Below, piece by piece: positions 31,185 through 44,416 of a DNA stretch of 64,000 nt (the stretch's first letter is position 1; each line of letters begins with the position of its first letter). Where the stretch lies: NCBI RefSeq assembly GCF_041248615.1, contig NZ_CP158426.1, one strand, 5' to 3'. Below the pieces are notes generated by a model. That model was not told the DNA's origin. It worked only from the letters and a program-made list of their open reading frames with translations, and did not search any database. This DNA comes from Escherichia coli (GTDB taxonomy: Bacteria; Pseudomonadota; Gammaproteobacteria; Enterobacterales; Enterobacteriaceae). The position numbers were made by a program, and so were the translations under genes.

Positions 31185-31327
31185 GAAACGGGAAAGCCCC
31201 TCCCGAGGAAGGGGCCTTAAATAAGGAAAGGGTCATGATGAAGATACTCATCATCGTGGTGCTCTTAGTGATTAGCTACCCAGCATACTAAGACTACCAG
31301 GGCGGGGGAAACCCCGCTCTACCCTCA
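31185..31327 (-). ncRNA. Sib antisense RNA, copy 2
   Basis: Same promoter and terminator as copy 1, shifted by 328 bp. Confidence 0.6.
31235..31291 (+). CDS. Type I toxin Ibs (18 aa, MMKILIIVVLLVISYPAY), IbsB-like, second copy
   Basis: Same unit as copy 1 shifted by 328 bp; one substitution (L4I). Confidence 0.75.
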   Translation: MMKILIIVVLLVISYPAY

Positions 31328-31513
31328 CTCCTGAAAGTATGCCTTCACGATAAGATTGTCAATCCGCAGGCTTTGCAGTCTGCGATCCTGCCAGCAAATA
31401 TTCTTTGCGAGTCGTTACGCAATAATCACAGAGGAAACTATTTTGGTCACGCGTTAGCGATAGACTGCATTCAGGGCGAAAGGAGGTAAGCCGACGATTT
31501 CAGCGGGACGCTG

Positions 31514-31662
31514 AAACGGGAAACCCTCTCCCGGAGAAGAGGGCTTTTAATAAGGAAAGGGTTATGATGAAGCACGTCATCATACTGGAGATACTCTTAG
31601 TGATTAGCTTCCAGGCTTACTAAGAACACCAGGGGGAGGGAGAAACCTCTCCCTAACCCTCA
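31514..31662 (-). ncRNA. Sib antisense RNA (SibA-like), copy 3
   Basis: Minus-strand promoter TTGACA-17nt-TAATTT; terminator hairpin CCCTCT/AGAGGG plus U-run. Ends are approximate. Confidence 0.55.
31564..31623 (+). CDS. Type I toxin Ibs (19 aa, MMKHVIILEILLVISFQAY), IbsA-like
   Basis: Diverged third unit; SD AAGGAAAGGG conserved. Confidence 0.7.
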   Translation: MMKHVIILEILLVISFQAY

Positions 31663-31843: not shown

Positions 31844-32503
31844 ATGAGCGAACAAATCACGTTTGCCACCAGCGATTTTGCCAGTAACCCGGAACCACGT
31901 TGCCCCTGCATTTTGCTGCTGGATGTTTCTGGTTCTATGAACGGTAGACCTATTAATGAACTTAACGCCGGATTGGTTACCTTTCGCGATGAGCTGCTTG
32001 CCGATTCGCTGGCCTTAAAAAGAGTGGAACTCGGCATTGTGACGTTCGGCCCGGTGCATGTGGAACAACCCTTTACCAGCGCCGCTAATTTTTTCCCGCC
32101 CATCCTGTTTGCCCAGGGCGATACACCAATGGGCGCTGCCATTACCAAAGCCCTGGATATGGTAGAGGAGCGGAAACGTGAGTATCGTGCAAATGGTATT
32201 TCGTATTATCGCCCGTGGATTTTCCTGATCACCGATGGCGCTCCAACCGATGAGTGGCAGGCTGCCGCCAACAAAGTGTTTCAGGGGGAAGAAGATAAGA
32301 AGTTTGCCTTCTTTTCCATCGGTGTTCAGGGGGCGGATATGAAGACTTTGGCACAAATCAGCGTTCGTCAGCCTTTGCCACTGCAGGGATTACAATTCCG
32401 TGAACTGTTTAGCTGGTTATCCAGTTCGCTGCGTTCGGTTTCCCGCTCCACGCCGGGAACGGAAGTTGTGCTGGAAGCGCCAAAAGGCTGGACGTCAGTG
32501 TGA
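31844..32503 (+). CDS. yegL: von Willebrand factor A (vWA) domain protein, TerY-like
   Basis: 219 aa; MIDAS motif DVSGSM at residues about 27-32 ([12 protein letters not shown]) and later threonine/aspartate positions (LITDGAPTD). Confidence 0.85.
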
Positions 32504-33261
32504 GCTGGCGTCTGGTCTATGCATCAACCGTTGGAACGTCGCACATCAGCGCGGACTTGCCTTGCCAGGATGCCTGCCAGATGCAGGTTGCCTGGTTAAA
32601 TGACCAGCAGCCATTATTGTCGGTATTTGTCGCCGATGGCGCAGGTAGCGTCTCGCAGGGTGGCGAAGGTGCGGAGCTTGCCGTTAATGAAGCGATGGCT
32701 TATATGATGCAAAAATTGCAGGGCGGGGAATTGGGGCTTAATGATGTCCTCGCAACGGATATTGTGCTGACCGTTCGTCAGCGACTTTTTGCCGAGGCGG
32801 AAGCCAAAGAATTAGCTGTTCGCGATTTTGCCTGCACGTTTATGGGATTGATTTCATCAGCTAATGGCACCCTGATTATGCAGATTGGCGATGGCGGCGT
32901 GGTGGTAGATTTGGGGCACGGTCTGCAACTGCCGCTCACGCCGATGGTAGGTGAATATGCCAATATGACACACTTCATTACTGATGAAGATGCCGTTTCC
33001 AGACTGGAAACTTTCACCAGCACTGAGCGTGCGCATAAAGTTGCAGCATTTACGGATGGTATCCAGCGGCTGGCGTTAAATATGCTGGATAATTCTCCCC
33101 ATGTGCCTTTCTTTACCCCGTTTTTCAATGGGCTGGCGTCAGCAACGCAGGAACAACTCGATTTATTACCTGAATTGTTAAAGCAGTTTTTGTCCAGCCC
33201 GGCGGTAAACGAGCGTACGGATGATGATAAAACGTTGGCACTGGCGCTGTGGTTACCATGA
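32500..33261 (+). CDS. yegK: PP2C-family protein Ser/Thr phosphatase
   Basis: 253 aa; GTG start overlapping the yegL stop (GTGA); metal-binding Asp/Gly-rich motif ([30 protein letters not shown]). Confidence 0.85.
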
Positions 33262-35198
33262 AACCCACTTTATATACTGCTACTGGTGAGTGCGTTACGC
33301 CAGGCTGTGAACTGGGCAAAGGTGGCGAAGGCGCGGTTTATGATATCGAGGAGTTTGTCGATAGCGTCGCCAAGATTTATCACACGCCGCCACCCGCCTT
33401 AAAACAGGACAAACTTGCCTTTATGGCTGCGACAGCTGACGCACAGTTGCTGAATTATGTCGCCTGGCCGCAGGCAACGCTTCACGGTGGACGAGGCGGA
33501 AAAGTTATCGGTTTTATGATGCCAAAAGTTTCTGGTAAAGAACCGATTCATATGATCTATAGCCCGGCACATCGTCGCCAGAGTTACCCTCATTGTGCGT
33601 GGGATTTTCTACTCTATGTTGCGCGTAATATTGCTTCATCTTTTGCTACGGTTCACGAGCACGGGCATGTCGTGGGTGACGTAAACCAGAACAGCTTTAT
33701 GGTAGGCCGTGACAGCAAAGTGGTGTTGATTGATAGCGACTCCTTTCAGATTAACGCCAACGGCACACTGCATTTATGCGAAGTCGGCGTGTCGCATTTT
33801 ACGCCGCCAGAGCTGCAAACCTTGCCATCATTTGTCGGCTTTGAACGCACCGCGAATCACGATAATTTTGGCCTTGCGTTGCTGATTTTTCACGTCTTGT
33901 TTGGTGGTCGGCATCCTTATTCCGGTGTACCGCTTATCTCTGATGCGGGTAATGCGCTGGAGACGGATATTGCCCATTTCCGTTATGCCTACGCGTCAGA
34001 TAATCAGCGACGTGGTTTAAAACCGCCGCCACGATCTATTCCGCTGTCGATGTTACCGGGCGATGTTGAAGCCATGTTTCAGCAGGCATTCACGGAAAGT
34101 GGCGTGGCAACCGCGCGTCCGACGGCAAAAGCGTGGGTAGCGGCACTTGATTTACTACGCCAACAGTTAAAGAAATGTACCGTTTCGGCAATGCATGTTT
34201 ACCCCGGTCATTTGACTGACTGCCCGTGGTGTGCGCTGGATAATCAAGGCGTTATCTATTTTATTGATCTCGGCGAAGAGGTCATTACCACCGGCGGTGA
34301 TTTTGTGCTGGCGAAAGTCTGGGCAATGGTGATGGCGTCAGTAGCACCACCAGCATTGCAACTGCCATTACCCGATCATTTCCAACCGACTGGCAGGCCG
34401 CTTCCTTTAGGCCTGTTACGGCGTGAATACATCATTCTGATTGAGATCGCACTGTCAGCGTTATCGCTGCTGCTTTGCGGCCTTCAGGTAGAACCGCGTT
34501 ATATCATTTTGGTTCCCGTGCTGGCGGCTATCTGGATTATTGGCAGCCTGACAAGCAAAGCGTACAAAGCAGAAATCCAGCAACGTCGTGAGGCGTTTAA
34601 TCGCGCGAAAATGGACTATGACCATTTAGTAAGCCAGATCCAACGGCTGGGCGGGCTGGAAGGTTTTATCGCCAAACGGGCGATGATCGAAAAAATGAAG
34701 GACGAAATTCTCGGGTTACCGGAAGAGGAGAAACGCGCTCTGGCAGCACTTCATGACACTGCAAGGGAACGGCAGAAGCAGAAGTTTCTGGAGGGATTTT
34801 TTATTGATGTTGCCTCTATTCCCGGCGTTGGCCCTGCGCGTAAAGCGGCGTTACGGTCTTTTGGTATTGAAACAGCCGCAGATGTTACCCGTCGTGGCGT
34901 TAAGCAAGTGAAAGGGTTTGGCGACCATCTGACCCAGGCGGTTATCGACTGGAAAGCGAGTTGTGAACGCCGTTTTGTGTTCAGGCCGAACGAAGCGGTA
35001 ACGCCTGCAGACAGACAAGCGGTACTGACTAAAATGGCCGCCAAACGACATCGGCTGGAATCGACGTTGACTGTCGGCGCGACAGAGTTGCAGCGATTCC
35101 GCCTTCAAGCTCCAGCACGGACCATGCCGTTGATGGAACCGTTACGTCAGGCGGCAGAAAAACTGGCTCAGGCGCAGGCTGAATTAAGCCGTTGCTGA
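33258..35198 (+). CDS. yegI: Atypical eukaryotic-like Ser/Thr protein kinase with membrane segment and C-terminal HhH-like region
   Basis: ATG overlaps the yegK stop (ATGA); alternative GTG at 33249. Gly-rich loop GKGGEGAVY, candidate Lys in VAKIYH, divergent catalytic loop HVVGDVNQNS, DSD in place of DFG. Confidence 0.8.
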   Translation: MKPTLYTATGECVTPGCELGKGGEGAVYDIEEFVDSVAKIYHTPPPALKQDKLAFMAATADAQLLNYVAWPQATLHGGRGGKVIGFMMPKVSGKEPIHMIYSPAHRRQSYPHCAWDFLLYVARNIASSFATVHEHGHVVGDVNQNSFMVGRDSKVVLIDSDSFQINANGTLHLCEVGVSHFTPPELQTLPSFVGFERTANHDNFGLALLIFHVLFGGRHPYSGVPLISDAGNALETDIAHFRYAYASDNQRRGLKPPPRSIPLSMLPGDVEAMFQQAFTESGVATARPTAKAWVAALDLLRQQLKKCTVSAMHVYPGHLTDCPWCALDNQGVIYFIDLGEEVITTGGDFVLAKVWAMVMASVAPPALQLPLPDHFQPTGRPLPLGLLRREYIILIEIALSALSLLLCGLQVEPRYIILVPVLAAIWIIGSLTSKAYKAEIQQRREAFNRAKMDYDHLVSQIQRLGGLEGFIAKRAMIEKMKDEILGLPEEEKRALAALHDTARERQKQKFLEGFFIDVASIPGVGPARKAALRSFGIETAADVTRRGVKQVKGFGDHLTQAVIDWKASCERRFVFRPNEAVTPADRQAVLTKMAAKRHRLESTLTVGATELQRFRLQAPARTMPLMEPLRQAAEKLAQAQAELSRC

Positions 35199-35210
35199 GC
35201 CAGTTTTCAA

Positions 35211-36563
35211 TTAACGAAACACCACTTCCGCCCAGCGTGCCAGCCCGGCGGTGACGGAGCCAAAGTCATCGCCGCCTGCAATCGGAATGCCCGGCAACTG
35301 TTCTGCCAGCGCCTTTTTAATCAGCGGTGAACGGGCGCTACCGCCGGTCAGGTAGATAACGTCCGGTTTTTCCTGGGCGTTATCCAGGGCCAGTTGCACC
35401 TGTTCCAGAATCCGCGCCAGTGGCTGGCTGAGGGCGCTTTCCAGCCCTTGCTGGCTAATCAGCGTAGCCAGTTCATCGCTGATAAACGGCAGTGAGGCGC
35501 GGGTTTCCGCTACGCTTGAAAGCGCAATTTTGCTCTCTTCTGCGCTACGTACCAGGCGATAGCTTAAACGCTGACGCCAGACTTTCTGTAACAGGGCCAC
35601 TTTTTCCGGTTCGCGGGCATCGCGTACCAGATCGTTAAGCAGACGACCGTTGGCACTACTGTAGAAATCACTTTGCGCAGGGACGTCGTTGATGGCAACC
35701 GCATTCCACCACGGCAGAATCGGCAGGGCGATGCCTTTTTCGGTTTCGCCCCCCATGCCCAGTAACGGCATCAGGTTTTTAAACGCCAGTGCGATATCCA
35801 GATCGTTACCGCCAATACGGCAACCACTGTGACCCAGCAGGCTGGCTTCACGATCGAGACGCGAACGCCACTGCGGCCCCATCAGCAGCAATGAACAGTC
35901 AGTCGTACCACCGCCGATATCCACCACCAGCACCCGTTTTTCTTCCTGCAAGGTGGCTTCGTAATCCAGCCCAGCCGCGACCGGCTCGTACTGGAATACC
36001 ACATCCTTAAACCCGGCACGCTTCGCCGCGCGTTCCAGAATCCCCTGCGCCTGGGTGTTTGCTTCATCGCCGCCAAGCCCCTGGAAGTTGATAGGGCGAC
36101 CAATTACCGCCTGAGTAATCGCATCCGGCAGCTGTGCCTGCGCCTGCTGGCGAATGTGCAACATCATTGCGCAGACCAGATCCTCAAACAGCGCTACCTG
36201 CTGCGGTTTTAAGCCGCTGGCACCGAGGAACGATTTTGGTGATTTCACAAACCACACTTCTTCTGGATCATCAATGTACTGTGCCAGTGAGGAAAGACCG
36301 AACTGCACGCTTTTCGCCGTAACATCGATATCTTCTTCGCGGTTATAACGAATCGCCCGACGCAACAGCGCCTGCGTTTCATCGTCGTCTGCCGGAACAT
36401 CATGATGGCGGTACAGCCATTCGCTTACCGCTTCACGCGTTGGCGCGCAAAGCATTGAAGGCAGCAGCGTGCTGTCGTTTTCCATTTTCAGTAATTGCGG
36501 CTTACCGTCGCGCATGACCGCCACTGAACAGTTTGCTGTACCGTAATCAAAACCAATAAACAC
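35211..36563 (-). CDS. yegD: Hsp70/actin-like ATPase-fold protein (DnaK paralog)
   Basis: ORF 35211..36626; proposed GTG start at 36563 gives 450 aa beginning (V)FIGFDYGTANCSVAVM; Hsp70 phosphate-binding motifs (VVDIGGGTTDCS). Confidence 0.8.
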   Translation of the reverse strand: MFIGFDYGTANCSVAVMRDGKPQLLKMENDSTLLPSMLCAPTREAVSEWLYRHHDVPADDDETQALLRRAIRYNREEDIDVTAKSVQFGLSSLAQYIDDPEEVWFVKSPKSFLGASGLKPQQVALFEDLVCAMMLHIRQQAQAQLPDAITQAVIGRPINFQGLGGDEANTQAQGILERAAKRAGFKDVVFQYEPVAAGLDYEATLQEEKRVLVVDIGGGTTDCSLLLMGPQWRSRLDREASLLGHSGCRIGGNDLDIALAFKNLMPLLGMGGETEKGIALPILPWWNAVAINDVPAQSDFYSSANGRLLNDLVRDAREPEKVALLQKVWRQRLSYRLVRSAEESKIALSSVAETRASLPFISDELATLISQQGLESALSQPLARILEQVQLALDNAQEKPDVIYLTGGSARSPLIKKALAEQLPGIPIAGGDDFGSVTAGLARWAEVVFR

Positions 36564-36696
36564 GAAATAATCCCCATGCCGGTGAAGAAGGGGCGTGACT
36601 TTAGCGAAATGTTGCCGTCGCGACAACCGGAATATGAAAGCAAAGCGTAGCGTCTGAATAACGTTTATGCTGAAAGCGGATTAACAAGGAGATGCG

Positions 36697-37554
36697 ATGT
36701 ATACCCTGAACTGGCAGCCGCCGTATGACTGGTCGTGGATGTTGGGATTTCTCGCCGCCCGTGCGGTGAACGGTGTGGAAACGGTCGCTGACGATTATTA
36801 TGCCCGTAGTCTGGCGGTGGGCGAATATCGCGGCGTGGTGACTGCTATTCCGGATATAGCCCGCCATACTCTGCACATAAATTTAAGTGCAGGTTTAGAA
36901 CCTGTTGCCGCAGAGTGTCTGGCGAAAATGAGCCGCCTGTTTGATCTGCAATGTAACCCGCAGATTGTTAACGGTGCGTTGGGCAAGTTAGGCGCGGCGC
37001 GGCCCGGATTGCGTTTACCCGGCAGTGTTGATGCTTTTGAGCAGGGCGTGCGGGCGATTTTAGGCCAACTGGTGAGCGTGGCGATGGCGGCAAAATTGAC
37101 CGCCAGAGTGGCACAGCTTTATGGCGAACGGCTGGATGATTTTCCGGATTATGTCTGCTTCCCCACGCCTCAGCGGCTGGCAGCAGCCGACCCGCAGGCA
37201 TTAAAAGCGTTAGGTATGCCGTTGAAACGGGCAGAGGCGCTGATTAATCTGGCAAATGCGGCGCTGGAGGGCACCTTACCAATGACAATTCCGGGCGACG
37301 TAGAGCAAGCGATGAAAACGCTGCAAACTTTTCCGGGTATCGGGCGCTGGACGGCGAATTATTTCGCCTTACGTGGCTGGCAGGCGAAAGATGTTTTCCT
37401 GCCGGATGATTATCTGATTAAACAGCGATTTCCGGGAATGACACCGGCACAAATCCGCCGTTATGCCGAACGCTGGAAGCCCTGGCGTTCTTATGCGCTG
37501 TTGCATATCTGGTATACGGAAGGCTGGCAACCAGACGGAACGGACGAATTGTAG
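36697..37554 (+). CDS. alkA: DNA-3-methyladenine glycosylase II
   Basis: 285 aa MYTLNWQPPYDWSWMLGFLAARAVNGVETV...; HhH-GPD glycosylase. Confidence 0.9.
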   Translation: MYTLNWQPPYDWSWMLGFLAARAVNGVETVADDYYARSLAVGEYRGVVTAIPDIARHTLHINLSAGLEPVAAECLAKMSRLFDLQCNPQIVNGALGKLGAARPGLRLPGSVDAFEQGVRAILGQLVSVAMAAKLTARVAQLYGERLDDFPDYVCFPTPQRLAAADPQALKALGMPLKRAEALINLANAALEGTLPMTIPGDVEQAMKTLQTFPGIGRWTANYFALRGWQAKDVFLPDDYLIKQRFPGMTPAQIRRYAERWKPWRSYALLHIWYTEGWQPDGTDEL

Positions 37555-37575
37555 GCCTGATACGCCGCATCAGGC
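37551..37575. repeat. REP-type palindrome between convergent alkA and dgcE
   Basis: GCCTGATACGCCGCATCAGGC imperfect palindrome. Confidence 0.5.
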
Positions 37576-37591
37576 GATGGGGAAGCACGCC

Positions 37592-40500
37592 TCAGTTAAT
37601 CGCGAAATAACTGCTATTCACCAGCAAATCCAGCGGTTGGGCATCGGCAATCACATCGCCATAAATCAGATCGACGCCGATGCCAGAAAGCGTATCCATC
37701 ACCAGGGGTAAAACTACTGGCCCGGCGATGGTCTTCATCCCGAGCCGCTGAGCGTGCCCCTGAATGATCGTAATCAGCATCTCATCCATCAAATTTCCCT
37801 GCACGTTGGCGCATAACTCACCATCAAGTAGCAGGTAATCTGCCATATTCGCTTTCAGCGAGTTGAAGATTTGCAGATCGCGGCCCACCTGACTGAATAC
37901 GATCCGACATCCCGCCAGCCGCAGTTTTTGCACGTTTTCTGCGTGATCTAAAATCGCGTCTGCCGGAATAATCAGATGTAATAACCGTGGTGGTAGAGGG
38001 CTATTTTCCAGCTGCTCAATTAGTTCATTCACCAGCGTGGCGCTACTCAAACCGGCAACGGAAAGCGGGAGGGCGATGCTTATACCTTTACTGGCAACCG
38101 CTTTGGCGGCCTGCTGGAAAAAATCGTGGAATACCCGTCGGTCAAGAGCATGGCTAAGTGCCGGATCGCTGAAGCTACGACGAAATGTTTGTTCATCAAT
38201 AATCTCGCCTTCGCAACTCCAGAGCTTAAGTGAAATCAGCCACAAATTACGCGCTTTCGGGATCCGCGGCGAAGCGACACCGTGGGCGATCATCATCAAC
38301 TGATTCTCTTTAATCATCCGCCACTGTTCATCAAGCGACATCGCCGCCCGTTCGCTATGTGCGGTAGCTTGCTGCGGTTCGTAAATCGTCACCCGGCCCC
38401 GGCCACCATTTTTGGAGGCATAACAGGCGATATCAGCCTGCGACATCACTTCAGCCGCCTGATGATTGTTGTCATCAATCAAGGTAATCCCGGCACTGGC
38501 ACCTACCCGATGTACACGTCCTTCCCAGATAAAGTGATAGTCATTCACGGCGCTGATAATGCGTGTAGCGATAAAACGCGCACTTTCGACATTACAATCT
38601 GGCAGCAGCAGACCAAATTCATCGCCACCGAGTCGCGCCAGCACGTCGCTGGAGCGCAGCATACTCAGCATCAACGACGCCAGTTCGCGCAGTAAAGCAT
38701 CGCCAGCGGCGTGCCCGGCGCTGTCATTCACCGCTTTAAAGCGATCAAGATCGATAAACACCAGTGCATGTCGCTGATGTGTACTGTTTACCGTTTGCAG
38801 CAGGATACGCAGTTGCTTCTCAAAACTGGCGCGATTGGCGAGATGCGTCAGTGCATCATGGGAGGCGCTGTAGCTCAGCTGGCGCAGCATTTTGCGTGAT
38901 TCGGTGACGTCCTGAATCACCAGAACCGAGCCTATATTGCTGCCGTCCAGAGTACTTAACGGCGTAATACTGTAATGCACGTCGTAGCTGCCGCCGCTCC
39001 GGCAGTGCAACACCACATCTTGTTCAATCGCGGAACGTGAGGTGTCGGCACTGTAAATGTTCTCCATTAATGGTCCGTTGTCGCCAAAAGTAATATGCAA
39101 CACCGTCAGGAGCGGAACACCTAATGCTTCTTCCTGCGTCCAGCCGCTCATCTTCTCCGCCACCGGATTCATAAAGGTAATTTTCATCGCCATATCAATA
39201 CAGACCACGGCTTCGCCGATGGAATCCAGCGTAATGTGCAGGCGCTCTTTTTCCTGAAACAATGCCTCGTTAAGCTGTTTCACTTCGGTCATATCCATAT
39301 TAATGCCGAGCAGGCGTTCGACTTCGCCTTCTTTATTCAGTACCCGGTTAGCGAGGGCGCGGATATGGCGAATGCCGTCTTTCACGGTAATGCGAAATTC
39401 CAGTTTAAAGGGAGAGCGTGATTGCAATGAATCGCGAATCACTTTTTCGGCGTGCTGGCGATCTTCCGGCAGCACGCACTCGTACCACACCTGCCAGTTC
39501 GGTTTGATATGCGGAGGAATTTCATACAGCTCGAACATCCGCTTATCCCAGCTAAAAATATTCGGCTTAAGCTCCCACTCCCAGATGCCAATTCCGCCCG
39601 CTTCGTTAGCCAGCGTGATGCGCTCCATCAGTTGCTGGTTCACCTGTTCGGTGCGTTTTAGCTCGTTAATGTCTTCAATCTGAGCGATAAAATAGAGCGG
39701 CGTACCATCGGTGTGGCGCACCAGTGAGACGGCAAGCAACGCCCAGACAACATCGCCATTGCGGTTGTAGTAGCGTTTTTCCATTGAATAGGTGTTTATT
39801 TCACCGCTGATCAGCTTTTCAACCTGTTGCAGATCTTTATTGAGATCCTCCGGCCAGGTCAGTTGCTGAAAGGTGAGTCCGCGCAGTTCTTCCTGACTGT
39901 AACCGAGAAACTGGCAGAGCGCTTTGTTGGATTGCAGCCATTGCCCCTCGGTGCCCACTAATGCCATGCCGATGGCGGAATATTCCATCGCGTTCCGAAA
40001 GCGGGTTTCGCTTTCGGAAATGTGTTTGCGTTCCGCACGAAAGGCATACATCACCATGGTCATGATGTTGGCGGGCAGCAGGATCAGCAAAAACGGTAGC
40101 CACGGCATATGGCTCATCAGGTATGTACGCGGCGTAGCAAGCAGGGAGGGATCCGCGGCCATCATCAGTGACACCATCATCACCGTGGTAAGGAAGATCA
40201 AAAAGGCTTCCATTCGTGGCAGGCGCACGGCGCTCCACATCAACAGCACAATAATGAAAGTAAAAGGCCACGGCAGATACAGCATCGAAAGCCAGCTTAA
40301 CGTCAGTGTGATGGCTAACGTGAGCAGCGACTCAAAAAGCAACCGTGGGTTGCGATGGCGCAGCAGATAGTGTGGTTTAAATAACAATCCCAGCGGCACT
40401 AGTGCCAGTGCGCCGATGGATTCTGAAAGTACCCATATCAAAAATGCCCTGAGAGGATCGTCTCCGGGCGTCAGCAGGGCAACCAGAACACCCCCCAACA

Positions 40501-40909
40501 GAGGCGGAACAATGGCGCTGCCGAGTGCCAGACGCAGCCAGTCAGCCAGATTTTGCAATGGGTTATACCACGGCAGCAATTTACGCAGTAGCACTGCCCC
40601 GACCACGGCTTCAACAATATTGATGGTCGTCCAGGTCATGTTCAGCGAGCTGGTGGAAAAAAGCAGGATGGATGCGGCGATATTTCCCAGCGAGCAGCTC
40701 AGCGCAATTCCCGGCCACATGCGCCCGGCATGGCGATAAAACGCCACCATCATGATGGACGTCGGGAACCACAGTGGGGCGAGTTGGGTGCCAAACTGCG
40801 AAAGCTCAAGCGAGAAAAGGGTAAAGATAAACGAGACTAAACCTAAACTGACCAGGTGAAGCAGCGGGTGGGGCAGGGCAATTAATACATGCTGTGATTG
40901 TTTGCTCAT
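37592..40909 (-). CDS. dgcE: Multi-domain diguanylate cyclase: N-terminal membrane sensor, PAS repeats, GGDEF and EAL-like domains
   Basis: 1105 aa; GGDEF motif (RLGGDEFGLLL) and a C-terminal EAL-like domain; recalled YegE/DgcE. Confidence 0.9.
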   Translation of the reverse strand: MSKQSQHVLIALPHPLLHLVSLGLVSFIFTLFSLELSQFGTQLAPLWFPTSIMMVAFYRHAGRMWPGIALSCSLGNIAASILLFSTSSLNMTWTTINIVEAVVGAVLLRKLLPWYNPLQNLADWLRLALGSAIVPPLLGGVLVALLTPGDDPLRAFLIWVLSESIGALALVPLGLLFKPHYLLRHRNPRLLFESLLTLAITLTLSWLSMLYLPWPFTFIIVLLMWSAVRLPRMEAFLIFLTTVMMVSLMMAADPSLLATPRTYLMSHMPWLPFLLILLPANIMTMVMYAFRAERKHISESETRFRNAMEYSAIGMALVGTEGQWLQSNKALCQFLGYSQEELRGLTFQQLTWPEDLNKDLQQVEKLISGEINTYSMEKRYYNRNGDVVWALLAVSLVRHTDGTPLYFIAQIEDINELKRTEQVNQQLMERITLANEAGGIGIWEWELKPNIFSWDKRMFELYEIPPHIKPNWQVWYECVLPEDRQHAEKVIRDSLQSRSPFKLEFRITVKDGIRHIRALANRVLNKEGEVERLLGINMDMTEVKQLNEALFQEKERLHITLDSIGEAVVCIDMAMKITFMNPVAEKMSGWTQEEALGVPLLTVLHITFGDNGPLMENIYSADTSRSAIEQDVVLHCRSGGSYDVHYSITPLSTLDGSNIGSVLVIQDVTESRKMLRQLSYSASHDALTHLANRASFEKQLRILLQTVNSTHQRHALVFIDLDRFKAVNDSAGHAAGDALLRELASLMLSMLRSSDVLARLGGDEFGLLLPDCNVESARFIATRIISAVNDYHFIWEGRVHRVGASAGITLIDDNNHQAAEVMSQADIACYASKNGGRGRVTIYEPQQATAHSERAAMSLDEQWRMIKENQLMMIAHGVASPRIPKARNLWLISLKLWSCEGEIIDEQTFRRSFSDPALSHALDRRVFHDFFQQAAKAVASKGISIALPLSVAGLSSATLVNELIEQLENSPLPPRLLHLIIPADAILDHAENVQKLRLAGCRIVFSQVGRDLQIFNSLKANMADYLLLDGELCANVQGNLMDEMLITIIQGHAQRLGMKTIAGPVVLPLVMDTLSGIGVDLIYGDVIADAQPLDLLVNSSYFAIN

Positions 40910-41226
40910 TACCGCTTTATCCGCAAGACCAGGTCGCCAGTATTCGTTTCTGTGTTTATGCTAGTACAAAAGTTTTACATTTTATATGCGAATTGCTCAT
41001 AAAGTGACGTAAAGGCGGATAATTTGCGCAACGGCGTATAACATTTTTTACCTTGTATAAAACTGATCAACGTAATTTGCCACCGGGAATTCTTTGTCAA
41101 CAATTAACTCTGAGCGCGCGGCAACGCTATTCGACTGGTATCAGGCGGATGAAATCCCTATAATTGCCGCGTTTGGCGCTTCGTCGCCCCCTTCCTAACA
41201 TCCAGGTTAATCAGGTCGCTAAATAT

Positions 41227-41868
41227 ATGACTGATCAGTCTCATCAGTGCGTCATTATCGGTATCGCTGGCGCATCGGCTTCCGGCAAGAGTCTTATTGC
41301 CAGTACCCTTTATCGTGAATTACGTGAGCAAGTCGGTGATGAACACATCGGCGTAATTCCCGAAGACTGCTATTACAAAGATCAAAGCCATCTGTCGATG
41401 GAAGAACGCGTTAAGACCAACTACGACCATCCCAGCGCGATGGATCACAGCCTGCTGCTTGAGCATTTACAAGCGTTGAAACGCGGCTCGGCAATTGACC
41501 TGCCGGTTTACAGCTATGTTGAACATACGCGTATGAAAGAAACGGTGACGGTTGAGCCGAAGAAAGTCATCATTCTCGAAGGCATTTTGCTGCTAACGGA
41601 TGCGCGTTTGCGTGATGAACTTAACTTCTCAATTTTCGTTGATACCCCGCTGGATATCTGCCTGATGCGCCGCATCAAGCGTGACGTTAACGAGCGTGGG
41701 CGTTCAATGGATTCAGTGATGGCGCAATATCAAAAAACCGTGCGTCCGATGTTCCTGCAATTCATTGAGCCTTCTAAACAATATGCGGACATTATCGTGC
41801 CGCGCGGCGGGAAAAACCGCATCGCCATCGATATATTGAAAGCGAAAATAAGTCAGTTCTTTGAATAA
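41227..41868 (+). CDS. udk: Uridine/cytidine kinase
   Basis: ORF 41164..41868 trimmed to [22 protein letters not shown] (213 aa); P-loop. Confidence 0.9.
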
Positions 41869-41959
41869 GCTTGATAAATTGTGTACCGTTCAGTGATAAC
41901 CTGGTATGCCCTTGACGTAATTGGCGTTAAGGGAGTGATGCGCGAAAGGAGAAAATGCC

Positions 41960-42541
41960 ATGCGTCTGTGTGACCGAGATATTGAAGCCTGGCTTGATGA
42001 AGGCCGTTTGTCGATCAACCCACGTCCGCCAGTGGAGCGTATTAACGGCGCGACAGTGGATGTGCGCCTGGGCAATAAATTTCGTACCTTCCGTGGTCAC
42101 ACGGCAGCGTTTATCGATCTGAGCGGTCCCAAAGATGAAGTGAGCGCCGCGCTTGACCGCGTGATGAGCGATGAGATCGTTCTCGATGAAAGCGAGGCGT
42201 TCTATCTTCACCCAGGAGAGCTGGCGCTGGCGGTGACGCTGGAGTCGGTGACGCTGCCAGCCGATCTGGTGGGATGGCTGGACGGTCGTTCCTCACTGGC
42301 GCGTCTGGGGCTTATGGTGCACGTCACCGCGCACCGTATCGATCCGGGCTGGTCTGGCTGTATTGTGCTGGAGTTCTACAACTCCGGTAAGCTGCCGCTG
42401 GCGCTGCGTCCGGGCATGTTAATTGGTGCGCTGAGCTTTGAGCCGCTTTCCGGCCCGGCGGCGCGACCTTACAACCGCCGTGAAGATGCGAAATATCGCA
42501 ACCAGCAGGGCGCGGTAGCCAGCCGAATCGATAAAGACTAA
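41960..42541 (+). CDS. dcd: dCTP deaminase
   Basis: 193 aa [23 protein letters not shown].... Confidence 0.95.
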
Positions 42542-42562
42542 TTCAGGCCCATTGAGGATACC

Positions 42563-44416
42563 ATGAGACGATTTCTGACGACGCTGATGATACTCCTGGT
42601 CGTGCTGGTGGCCGGGTTATCTGCGTTAGTGTTGCTGGTGAATCCGAATGATTTCCGCGACTATATGGTCAAGCAAGTTGCTGCACGTAGCGGTTATCAA
42701 TTGCAGCTCGACGGGCCACTGCGTTGGCACGTCTGGCCGCAGCTTAGTATCCTCTCCGGGCGAATGTCTCTCACCGCCCAGGGCGCGAGCCAGCCACTGG
42801 TTCGCGCCGACAACATGCGTCTGGACGTGGCGCTTTTACCACTGCTGAGTCATCAACTGAGCGTTAAGCAGGTAATGCTAAAAGGGGCAGTGATCCAACT
42901 GACGCCGCAGACGGAAGCGGTACGCAGTGAAGATGCCCCGGTTGCACCACGCGACAATACCTTGCCGGATCTGTCAGACGATCGCGGATGGTCGTTTGAT
43001 ATATCCAGTCTTAAGGTGGCGGACAGCGTGCTGGTGTTCCAGCATGAAGATGACGAGCAGGTGACAATCCGCAATATTCGCCTGCAAATGGAACAAGATC
43101 CCCAACATCGTGGTTCATTTGAGTTCTCCGGGCGGGGTAATCGCGATCAGCGCGATCTCACGATATCCCTTAACGGTACGGTAGATGCTTCTGATTATCC
43201 GCATGATTTAACGGCGGCTATTGAACAAGTTAACTGGCAGTTGCAGGGTGCAGATTTACCAAAACAAGGTATTCAGGGGCAGGGGAGTTTCCAGGCCCAG
43301 TGGCAGGAGTCACATAAACGCCTTTCATTTAACCAAATTAGTTTGACCGCCAATGACAGTACGCTGAGCGGGCAAGCACAGGTCACGCTGACAGAGCAAC
43401 CGGAATGGCAGCTGAGACTGCAATTTCCGCAACTGAATCTTGACAACCTCATCCCGCTTAATGAAACAGCGAACGGTGAAAACGGTGCCGCGCAGCAGGG
43501 GCAGAGCCAATCAACGTTGCCGCGCCCGGTCATTTCTTCGCGTATTGATGAACCGGCCTATCAGGGACTGCAAGGCTTTACGGCTGATATTTTGTTGCAG
43601 GCCAGTAACGTGCGCTGGCGCGGAATGAATTTTACAGATGTTGCCACGCAAATGACCAACAAGTCGGGTTTGCTGGAAATTACTCAACTGCAGGGCAAAC
43701 TTAACGGTGGACAGGTTTCACTGCCGGGCACGCTGGACGCGACATCAATAAATCCGCGGATAAACTTCCAGCCACGGCTGGAAAACGTTGAGATTGGTAC
43801 CATTCTGAAGGCGTTTAACTATCCGATTTCGTTGACCGGAAAGATGTCACTGGCTGGTGATTTCTCCGGTGCTGACATAGATGCCGACGCATTCCGCCAT
43901 AACTGGCAAGGACAGGCACATGTCGAAATGACCGACACGCGCATGGAAGGGATGAACTTCCAGCAGATGATTCAGCAAGCGGTAGAACGTAATGGTGGTG
44001 ATGTGAAGGCCGCTGAAAACTTCGATAACGTAACGCGTCTTGACCGCTTTACCACCGATTTGACGTTGAAGGATGGCGTCGTGACGTTAAACGACATGCA
44101 AGGTCAATCGCCCATGCTGGCGCTTTCCGGGGCTGGTACGTTGAATCTGGCGGAGCAAACCTGTGACACCCAGTTTGATATTCGGGTCGTGGGGGGCTGG
44201 AACGGGGAAAGCAAACTGATTGATTTCCTCAAAGAAACGCCAGTACCGCTTCGGGTTTATGGCAACTGGCAGCAACTCAATTACAGTCTGCAAGTGGATC
44301 AGTTACTGCGCAAACATCTACAGGACGAAGCGAAACGTCGCCTGAATGACTGGGCCGAGCGGAATAAAGATTCCCGCAATGGCAAAGATGTGAAGAAGTT
44401 GCTGGAGAAGATGTAG
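42563..44416 (+). CDS. asmA: AsmA outer-membrane assembly protein (AsmA-like family)
   Basis: 617 aa with N-terminal membrane anchor; udk-dcd-asmA order conserved. Confidence 0.9.
   Translation: MRRFLTTLMILLVVLVAGLSALVLLVNPNDFRDYMVKQVAARSGYQLQLDGPLRWHVWPQLSILSGRMSLTAQGASQPLVRADNMRLDVALLPLLSHQLSVKQVMLKGAVIQLTPQTEAVRSEDAPVAPRDNTLPDLSDDRGWSFDISSLKVADSVLVFQHEDDEQVTIRNIRLQMEQDPQHRGSFEFSGRGNRDQRDLTISLNGTVDASDYPHDLTAAIEQVNWQLQGADLPKQGIQGQGSFQAQWQESHKRLSFNQISLTANDSTLSGQAQVTLTEQPEWQLRLQFPQLNLDNLIPLNETANGENGAAQQGQSQSTLPRPVISSRIDEPAYQGLQGFTADILLQASNVRWRGMNFTDVATQMTNKSGLLEITQLQGKLNGGQVSLPGTLDATSINPRINFQPRLENVEIGTILKAFNYPISLTGKMSLAGDFSGADIDADAFRHNWQGQAHVEMTDTRMEGMNFQQMIQQAVERNGGDVKAAENFDNVTRLDRFTTDLTLKDGVVTLNDMQGQSPMLALSGAGTLNLAEQTCDTQFDIRVVGGWNGESKLIDFLKETPVPLRVYGNWQQLNYSLQVDQLLRKHLQDEAKRRLNDWAERNKDSRNGKDVKKLLEKM

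Follow-up and report, generated by a model that had tools for sequence, protein, structure and literature searches.

The dgcE locus

A large protein encoded next to alkA in a 64,000-nucleotide stretch of an Escherichia coli genome (the window) carries a GGDEF domain followed by an EAL-like domain, raising the question of whether it both makes and degrades c-di-GMP, or whether one of its two domains has lost its activity. DgcE would stand at the head of the c-di-GMP cascade leading to curli and cellulose, so annotating it correctly has a bearing on how a strain's biofilm potential is read. An earlier note, working from the letters alone, had called the gene dgcE, a known gene of low interest, and proposed a Pfam domain search and a residue-level alignment of the EAL-like domain, whose catalytic competence it left open. 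We performed both analyses, and the gene is almost certainly dgcE (yegE), encoding the major E. coli diguanylate cyclase with a catalytically dead EAL-like domain. The locus is organized as follows:

36697..37554, plus strand: alkA, convergent with dgcE and ending 37 bp from the dgcE 3' end
37555..37591, unstranded: alkA-dgcE convergent spacer, 37 bp, with an apparent truncated REP-type palindrome (labeled by eye)
37592..40909, minus strand: dgcE (yegE) coding sequence from the ORF list, 1105 aa, ATG start, TGA stop
40910..41226, unstranded: dgcE-udk divergent intergenic region, 317 bp, presumably the dgcE promoter and 5' UTR
41227..41868, plus strand: udk, divergent from dgcE and on its 5' side

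The ORF listing gives a single intact reading frame at dgcE. Several complete E. coli genomes carry, between alkA and udk, a locus that is annotated as dgcE and has the same DNA at 100% identity; among 5426 complete E. coli genomes, the locus has a match in 5417. The protein matches the NCBIfam equivalog NF007298 (PRK09776 diguanylate cyclase), scoring 2066.5 bits where the cut-off is 1135, and the alignment is full-length (protein residues 1-1105 to profile positions 1-1111 of 1111). E. coli K-12 DgcE (YegE, b2067) aligns without gaps and is identical at 1090 of 1105 positions (98.6%), and alkA and udk flank dgcE in K-12 as well. These matches bear out the identity and the position next to alkA given in the earlier note. 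Because the profile matches are strong and the DNA matches an annotated core gene exactly, a chance match is of no concern. dgcE is an already known gene that is present, intact and orthodox in the window, and its listing as a known gene of low interest was appropriate.

Domain architecture and cyclase active site

Pfam searches, run for the PAS and EAL-like domains on isolated segments, recovered the following domains, shown with the motifs and the linker and all on the minus strand:

40028..40855: MASE1 membrane domain, residues 19-294 (PF05231, E 1.8e-35, profile positions 2-298 of 299)
39632..40015: PAS domain 1, residues 299-426 (PAS_9/PAS_3/PAS, E 1.8e-12 to 6.8e-11)
39257..39631: PAS domain 2, residues 427-551 (PAS_3, E 1.6e-11)
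38870..39256: PAS domain 3, residues 552-680 (PAS_4, E 1.9e-12)
38396..38866: GGDEF (diguanylate cyclase) domain, residues 682-838 (PF00990, E 1.1e-45, profile positions 1-160 of 161)
38645..38656: RxxD motif, here RSSD (752-755), located five residues upstream of GGDEF
38615..38629: GGDEF motif of the active site, intact, residues 761-765
38309..38389: linker between GGDEF and EAL, residues 841-867, more polymorphic than any other stretch of DgcE
37595..38308: degenerate EAL domain (EAL-deg), residues 868-1105 (Pfam EAL, E 7.7e-22; also from alignments, AF2 and Foldseek)

The order MASE1, three PAS domains, GGDEF and degenerate EAL is the same as that described in PMC6510439. The architecture claimed earlier, a membrane sensor, PAS repeats, an intact GGDEF domain and an EAL-like domain in 1105 residues, is therefore matched by Pfam and correct. 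A Kyte-Doolittle scan fits a polytopic N-terminus: 13 overlapping 19-residue windows reach at least 1.5 within the first 300 residues and group into about eight hydrophobic segments, although the threshold is crude and does not cleanly separate membrane from cytoplasm, as one window past residue 300 also scores 1.67.

Translation places both the GGDEF motif, as the earlier note had claimed, and the RSSD motif in the cyclase domain, and both motifs are invariant in seven alleles. We take the RSSD position to be a putative product-inhibition I-site, as in other cyclases. In K-12, a GGAAF mutant of DgcE loses function, and c-di-GMP is very low both in this mutant and when dgcE is deleted, according to PMC6510439 and PMC13031359. 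By analogy with these mutants, DgcE in the window would synthesize c-di-GMP from GTP.

Catalytic residues and fold of the EAL-like domain

With an intact cyclase motif, DgcE might be bifunctional, with an EAL-like domain that works as a c-di-GMP phosphodiesterase and breaks down the messenger made by the cyclase. There are tandem GGDEF-EAL proteins whose two domains are both active, such as MorA (4rnh), one of the structural matches to the DgcE domain. In the whole protein, Pfam EAL also matches residues 898-1088 with 73.5 bits (E 2.2e-20), well above the gathering threshold of 31.3; however, the match covers profile positions 39-234 of 236 and skips positions 1-38, which hold the EAL signature region.

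To resolve individual residues, we used a MAFFT L-INS-i alignment of six EAL sequences: DgcE, PdeH, PdeL, RbdA (5xgb), PA0575 (5m3c) and FimX. We take PdeH, PdeL and RbdA to be active phosphodiesterases, and PA0575 serves as a canonical-motif reference. The list of canonical residues was compiled from those common to PdeH, PdeL, RbdA and PA0575, from a review (PMC7288161) and from general knowledge. In this alignment, the QP motif becomes H876-G877 in DgcE, and EALxR becomes LISLK, with L891-I892-S893 at EAL and K895 at the arginine. The metal-binding asparagine is replaced by P948, ExxE by IxxA (I980 and A983), the DD of DDFG(T)G by S1006-Q1007, and the catalytic lysine of K-I-D by L1027. EGVE, the E(G)VE motif, reads GPVV (G1063 and V1066), and QG reads YG, with Y1083 for the glutamine. 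Independent phmmer alignments agree, apart from being offset by a single register at the EAL motif and at the N motif; in both alignments, the EAL- and N-motif stretches of DgcE contain no Glu or Asn in any register, and WLISLKLW is without an acidic residue. A four-sequence MAFFT alignment was discarded, as its N-terminal half was misaligned, placing ENQLMM of DgcE opposite the PdeL and PdeH EAL motif.

The fold itself is kept in the predicted structure. An AF2 model of the EAL-like domain reaches a pLDDT of 87.7 and a pTM of 0.86, from an eight-sequence input alignment including FimX, RbdA and PA0575 that may pull the model towards those folds, and Foldseek aligns it to the EAL domains of FimX, RbdA, RocR, TBD1265 and MorA with TM-scores of 0.76-0.89. 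This confidently predicted EAL fold would suit a bifunctional enzyme, but DgcE keeps none of the metal-binding and catalytic positions conserved in PdeH, PdeL, RbdA and PA0575, and its best PDB sequence matches are the non-catalytic domains of FimX. Because all canonical EAL residues are substituted, the EAL-like domain is catalytically incompetent, and we give the bifunctional reading next to no credence.

The same FimX matches raise a second alternative, in which the domain is a receptor of the FimX/LapD type that binds the c-di-GMP made by the GGDEF domain but leaves it uncleaved, thereby mediating feedback inhibition. For EAL-deg alone, the FimX EAL domains of Xanthomonas and P. aeruginosa (4f3h, 4fok, 3hv8) are the closest PDB sequence match (E 2.4e-07), with 4f3h, 4foj and 3hv9 at the top. 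FimX domains (7lkq, 4j40, 4fou) also lead the Foldseek matches by E-value, by a marginal difference and with TM-scores equal or higher for active EAL enzymes. The FimX and DgcE domains are alike in being non-catalytic and in carrying SQ where DDFG has DD, and EAL-deg is inhibitory in vivo according to PMC6510439. Unlike DgcE, however, FimX keeps QP, E(V)L-R, the second Glu of ExxE and the lysine, and binds c-di-GMP.

Fifteen residues of X. citri FimX contact c-di-GMP (PMC7288161). DgcE retains three of the 15: D508 (D923), G674 (G1084) and D675 (D1085, which is Glu in K-12). The changed contacts are Q463→H, R481→K, S490→D, P491→E, M495→R, R534→P, E653→G, F654→P, Q673→Y and T680→A, and the F479-L480 positions become I/S or L/I depending on alignment register. 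With three of 15 contacts kept, a receptor function is unexpected. PMC6510439 also describes the c-di-GMP-binding positions as degenerate and, from sequence, infers an absence of c-di-GMP binding by EAL-deg. Moreover, the RxxD site in the GGDEF domain would already offer a conventional feedback route. We therefore regard the receptor reading as very improbable. Taken together, the loss of the EAL residues and the sparse FimX contacts argue that the domain is no phosphodiesterase and is improbable as a c-di-GMP receptor.

The question of catalytic competence that the earlier note had left open is thus answered in the negative. Genetic analysis in PMC6510439, in which EAL-deg is degenerate, inhibitory and counteracts oligomer formation, agrees with our residue analysis. 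This residue-level answer, consistent with published work, is what is gained over the first reading; the analysis of dgcE in the window makes no open question newly testable.

Comparison with known proteins and proposed mechanism

K-12 DgcE has the same length, domain order, neighboring genes, GGDEF and RxxD motifs and degenerate EAL motif positions. The best solved relative over PAS domain 3, GGDEF and EAL is Pseudomonas aeruginosa RbdA (PA0861; PDB 5xgb; E 2.3e-73, residues 545-1089), whose solved part is without MASE1. Like DgcE, RbdA has a tandem PAS-GGDEF-EAL arrangement and an intact GGDEF motif; unlike DgcE, it has the full set of EAL catalytic residues (ELL, N, ExxE, DD, K, ExVE, QG). 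RbdA acts as a phosphodiesterase according to PMC6510439, which makes DgcE the mirror case, its cyclase being active and its EAL dead. The same text describes E. coli PdeA (there called YfgA) and PdeF (YfgF) as MASE1-GGDEFdeg-EAL proteins. By that description they resemble DgcE in joining MASE1 to c-di-GMP enzyme domains, and PdeA resembles it in its pattern of proteolytic degradation, but they are built the other way round, their GGDEF being degenerate and their EAL active.

The open reading frame, identity, domain order, GGDEF and RxxD motifs, EAL fold, lost catalytic residues and selection were observed on the sequence; all functional steps that follow would hold by orthology. MASE1 would anchor DgcE in the inner membrane, followed by three cytoplasmic PAS domains, a competent GGDEF domain that would convert GTP to c-di-GMP, and a dead C-terminal EAL domain. 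[quoted passage not shown] Its authors propose that DgcE takes its input signal from a drop in GTP in stationary phase, and that activation proceeds through alignment and dimerization of the PAS region and the GGDEF domains; the dimerization and activation role belongs to the whole PAS region, which that paper terms 'PAS3'. EAL-deg would inhibit the cyclase by some means other than product degradation and would counter higher-order oligomers, the suggested active form. MASE1 may also make DgcE a target of continuous proteolysis, and DgcE activity would be inverse to membrane potential. The c-di-GMP produced by DgcE would then turn on CsgD, curli and cellulose by acting on the PdeR/DgcM module.

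Sequence variation and selection

Nei-Gojobori counts over seven alleles, which do not separate relaxed constraint from positive selection, give a pN/pS of 0.20 for residues 841-1105 and 0.029 for residues 1-840, a difference of about seven-fold. In the same alleles, pS is similar in the two parts (0.080 and 0.099, respectively), and six of the 27 positions of the linker (residues 841-867) are variable. Constraint on the EAL-deg region is relaxed, yet selection there remains purifying. The 15 substitutions that separate the protein from K-12 DgcE are mostly (nearly all) conservative, and 12 of them lie in the linker and EAL-deg, within residues 842-1085 (last 265 residues; Fisher p 6.6e-6). 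We rejected recombination as the source of this excess, since synonymous divergence in EAL-deg does not exceed that elsewhere in the gene.

It is conceivable, but improbable, that EAL-deg is more than a steric block to oligomerization and is instead a module for binding a ligand or partner, with its pocket remodeled for another small molecule or a protein. In that case, its fast evolution and the hypervariable linker might tune DgcE output, and with it matrix production, between E. coli lineages.

Flanking intergenic regions

The alkA-dgcE spacer is 37 bp in the window and 108 bp in K-12, and the alignment shows that a REP-like sequence is missing here. A terminator in this spacer was considered and rejected, as its hairpin is no better than those of shuffled sequences (z -1.29); terminator-like sites in the region number eight against 4.3 ± 2.6 expected, not clearly above expectation. 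An Rfam search of 35000-43000 at a permissive threshold gave a single chance-level match, to an archaeal snoRNA model (E 0.81). On the other side of the gene, a consensus scan found no minus-strand sigma-70-like site upstream of dgcE. We take dgcE to be RpoS-dependent, as reported, and if so, a sigma-70 consensus scan is uninformative for its promoter. The dgcE-udk region itself differs from that of K-12 by few substitutions across a spanning alignment of 381 columns.

The dgcE gene and its genomic context

The earlier note described dgcE as a known gene next to alkA, and our ORF list reproduces its coordinates and length exactly: the gene runs from ATG to TGA and encodes 1105 amino acids. Any other ORF that overlaps it, on whichever strand, is a short mechanical frame (61-148 aa). 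At its 3' end dgcE meets the convergent alkA.

Genes at the dgcE locus (window coordinates)
36697..37554, plus strand: alkA, convergent with the dgcE 3' end across a 37-bp spacer
37592..40909, minus strand: dgcE, diguanylate cyclase
41227 (annotated start), plus strand: udk, divergent from the dgcE 5' end, with 317 bp between

GC content across dgcE is unremarkable (0.50-0.56). In a megablast search with window 37000-41500 as query, the locus is present in 5,417 of 5,426 complete E. coli genomes, several of them 100% identical to it; one of these, TUM14759, differs from the window at 5 bases over 16.5 kb. Every match among those listed is annotated dgcE, alkA and udk. Along its whole length the protein scores 2066 bits with the NCBIfam equivalog NF007298 (PRK09776, diguanylate cyclase), whose cut-off is 1135, and it is identical to K-12 DgcE (b2067, formerly YegE) at 1090 of 1105 positions without gaps. 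dgcE in the window is an already known core gene at its normal chromosomal position. A PDB search found no solved structure of DgcE itself, and the best relative there is RbdA of P. aeruginosa, over its PAS-GGDEF-EAL part (5xgb, E 2.3e-73).

Domain architecture and cyclase site

Pfam annotation bears out the proposed order of membrane sensor, PAS repeats, GGDEF domain and C-terminal EAL-like domain. The three inter-domain segments, scanned one by one, are each a PAS domain by themselves.

Domains of DgcE (residues)
19-294: MASE1 (Pfam)
299-426: PAS domain 1 (segment scanned separately)
427-551: PAS domain 2 (segment scanned separately)
552-680: PAS domain 3 (segment scanned separately)
682-838: GGDEF (Pfam, full profile)
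752-755: RxxD motif (RSSD), five residues upstream of the GGDEF motif (translation)
898-1088: EAL (Pfam)

A hydropathy scan gave 13 overlapping windows of at least 1.5 within residues 1-300, grouped into about 8 hydrophobic segments; since one window past residue 300 reaches 1.67, this crude threshold does not split membrane from cytoplasm cleanly. The published count is ten transmembrane segments (PMC6510439).

Translation places an intact GGDEF motif at residues 761-765, as the earlier note had read it. The D-x-D-R-F-K-x-V-N-D-x-x-G-H-x-x-G-D pattern typical of active cyclases can be read directly at residues 720-737. RSSD lies at the position that the product-inhibition site has in other cyclases, and is a putative site of this kind in DgcE.

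The EAL domain of DgcE lacks the canonical catalytic residues

Whether the EAL-like domain is catalytically competent had been left open. We aligned DgcE residues 850-1105 with the active phosphodiesterases PdeH, PdeL and RbdA, with PA0575 as an additional reference in which the canonical motifs are present, and with FimX, a c-di-GMP receptor that is not catalytic. PdeH and PdeL sequences came from the K-12 genome record, and those of RbdA and PA0575 from phmmer output. The canonical positions are common to all four enzymes, except that PdeH lacks the Arg after its ELL motif, and DgcE keeps none of them.

Canonical EAL positions and the aligned DgcE residues (coordinates confirmed by translation)
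QP: H876-G877
E(A/V/L)L: L891-I892-S893
R following E(A/V/L)L: K895
N: P948
ExxE: I980 … A983
DD of DDFG: S1006-Q1007
K of K-I-D: L1027
E(G)VE: G1063-P-V-V1066
QG: Y1083-G1084

At the EAL and N motifs, two independent phmmer alignments are shifted by one register, but the stretches concerned, WLISLKLW and ISIALPLSVAG, have neither Glu nor Asn, so the loss holds in either register. All seven E. coli alleles that we compared have the same degenerate residues. Residues 868-1105 (window 37595..38308; hereafter EAL-deg) keep the EAL fold in an AlphaFold2 model, with a mean pLDDT of 87.7 and a pTM of 0.86. The model superposes on solved EAL domains, including FimX, RbdA, RocR, TBD1265 and MorA, with TM scores of 0.76-0.89, with the caveat that its 8-row input alignment contained three of the families superposed on. 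With the canonical residues absent and the fold retained, EAL-deg is an EAL domain by fold that has no active site. Judged by this alignment, in which all canonical residues are replaced, the domain is catalytically dead. For K-12 DgcE, Pfiffer et al. likewise describe essentially all c-di-GMP-binding, metal-binding and catalytic residues as unconserved (PMC6510439).

FimX EAL domains are the closest PDB sequences to isolated EAL-deg, and FimX also comes first by E-value in the Foldseek list; we therefore tested the idea that EAL-deg is a c-di-GMP receptor. According to a review, 15 residues of X. citri FimX contact c-di-GMP (PMC7288161). Mapped through alignments, three of the 15 are retained in DgcE (D923, G1084 and D1085, the last being Glu in K-12), and the others are substituted, mostly non-conservatively. 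With so few contacts left, we rejected a FimX-type role, and c-di-GMP receptor function of EAL-deg is unlikely. The likeness to FimX lies in shared loss, SQ for DD being an example, not in a shared pocket.

Constraint along dgcE

Twelve of the 15 amino-acid differences from K-12 fall within residues 842-1085, in the C-terminal 24% of the protein (Fisher p 6.6e-6). Against K-12, residues 841-1105 have a dN/dS of 0.17 and residues 1-840 one of 0.017, with dS alike in both parts (0.116 and 0.124, respectively); across seven alleles that span the species' diversity, pN/pS is 0.20 versus 0.029. By these contrasts the C-terminal region is relaxed about 7-fold with purifying selection persisting, although seven alleles and simple counting do not separate relaxation from positive selection. 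Such a relaxed but still purifying pattern fits a retained non-catalytic regulatory role. The GGDEF-EAL linker (residues 841-867; window 38309-38389) is the most polymorphic stretch among the seven alleles, with 6 of 27 positions variable and a pN/pS of 1.85 on very few sites.

dS against K-12 (dgcE at L002 8267-11584, the K-12 locus) is uneven along the gene: the third that encodes MASE1 has about 0.045, with one difference in the first 300 nt, and the parts for the PAS, GGDEF and EAL-like domains have 0.12-0.20; neighboring genes show 0.064-0.085. Such unevenness may reflect old recombination. A few complete E. coli genomes carry an apparently disrupted dgcE (matches H30, H32 and H35). Two of these matches span 3311 nt where the query has 3318 nt, suggesting a frameshifting deletion, and one, annotated 'MASE1 domain-containing protein', extends over just 34% of the query.

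Proposed regulation of DgcE, by orthology with K-12

We take the mechanism of DgcE in the window by orthology from K-12, where deletion of dgcE leaves very low c-di-GMP and DgcE is the major cyclase (PMC13031359). According to PMC6510439, DgcE acts upstream of PdeR and triggers the CsgD, curli and cellulose programme at its top level, with MASE1 and the PAS region activating. There, RdcA, a GTPase, binds MASE1 together with RdcB, and the activation of DgcE that follows requires GTP hydrolysis; the authors suggest low GTP in stationary phase as the signal. EAL-deg is described as inhibitory, dimerizing and opposing higher-order oligomers, which the authors propose as the active form, and MASE1 as conferring rapid N-to-C proteolytic turnover. 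A 2026 study reports DgcE activity inverse to membrane potential or PMF and ties RdcA, RdcB and YnjH to the same phenotype (PMC13031359). By analogy, RdcA and RdcB acting on MASE1 would activate the cyclase in the window, and EAL-deg would restrain it.

Flanking DNA and nearby genes

Rfam at a permissive threshold returned nothing credible over 35000-43000. A scan for promoters and terminators around dgcE stayed within expectation and matched no promoter on the minus strand upstream of the gene; the dgcE-udk intergenic region has only a few substitutions relative to K-12. At the alkA 3' end and spacer (window 37530-37591), 51 bp are missing relative to K-12, comprising the K-12 alkA stop codon and the first REP-like palindrome, and the second palindrome lacks 11 bp. 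With this REP-like sequence lost, the spacer is 37 bp versus 108 bp in K-12, and as a result the last residues of AlkA are altered (...WQPDGTDEL, 285 aa, versus ...WQPDEA, 282 aa, in K-12). The leftover spacer hairpin is no better than shuffles.

Further from dgcE, yegJ (DUF2314, b2071), in K-12 located on the opposite strand from its neighbors yegI and pphC and between them, is absent at the pphC/yegI junction (window about 32500-33260; L001 1501-4199, L001 being a compared locus), and pphC and yegI form a coupled pair with a 4-bp overlap. Upstream of yegL, the annotation has two type I toxin genes of the Ibs family, ibsA and a second Ibs (window 31235-31623; L001 236-624); they are also found in K-12, overlapping the antisense RNAs SibA and SibB.
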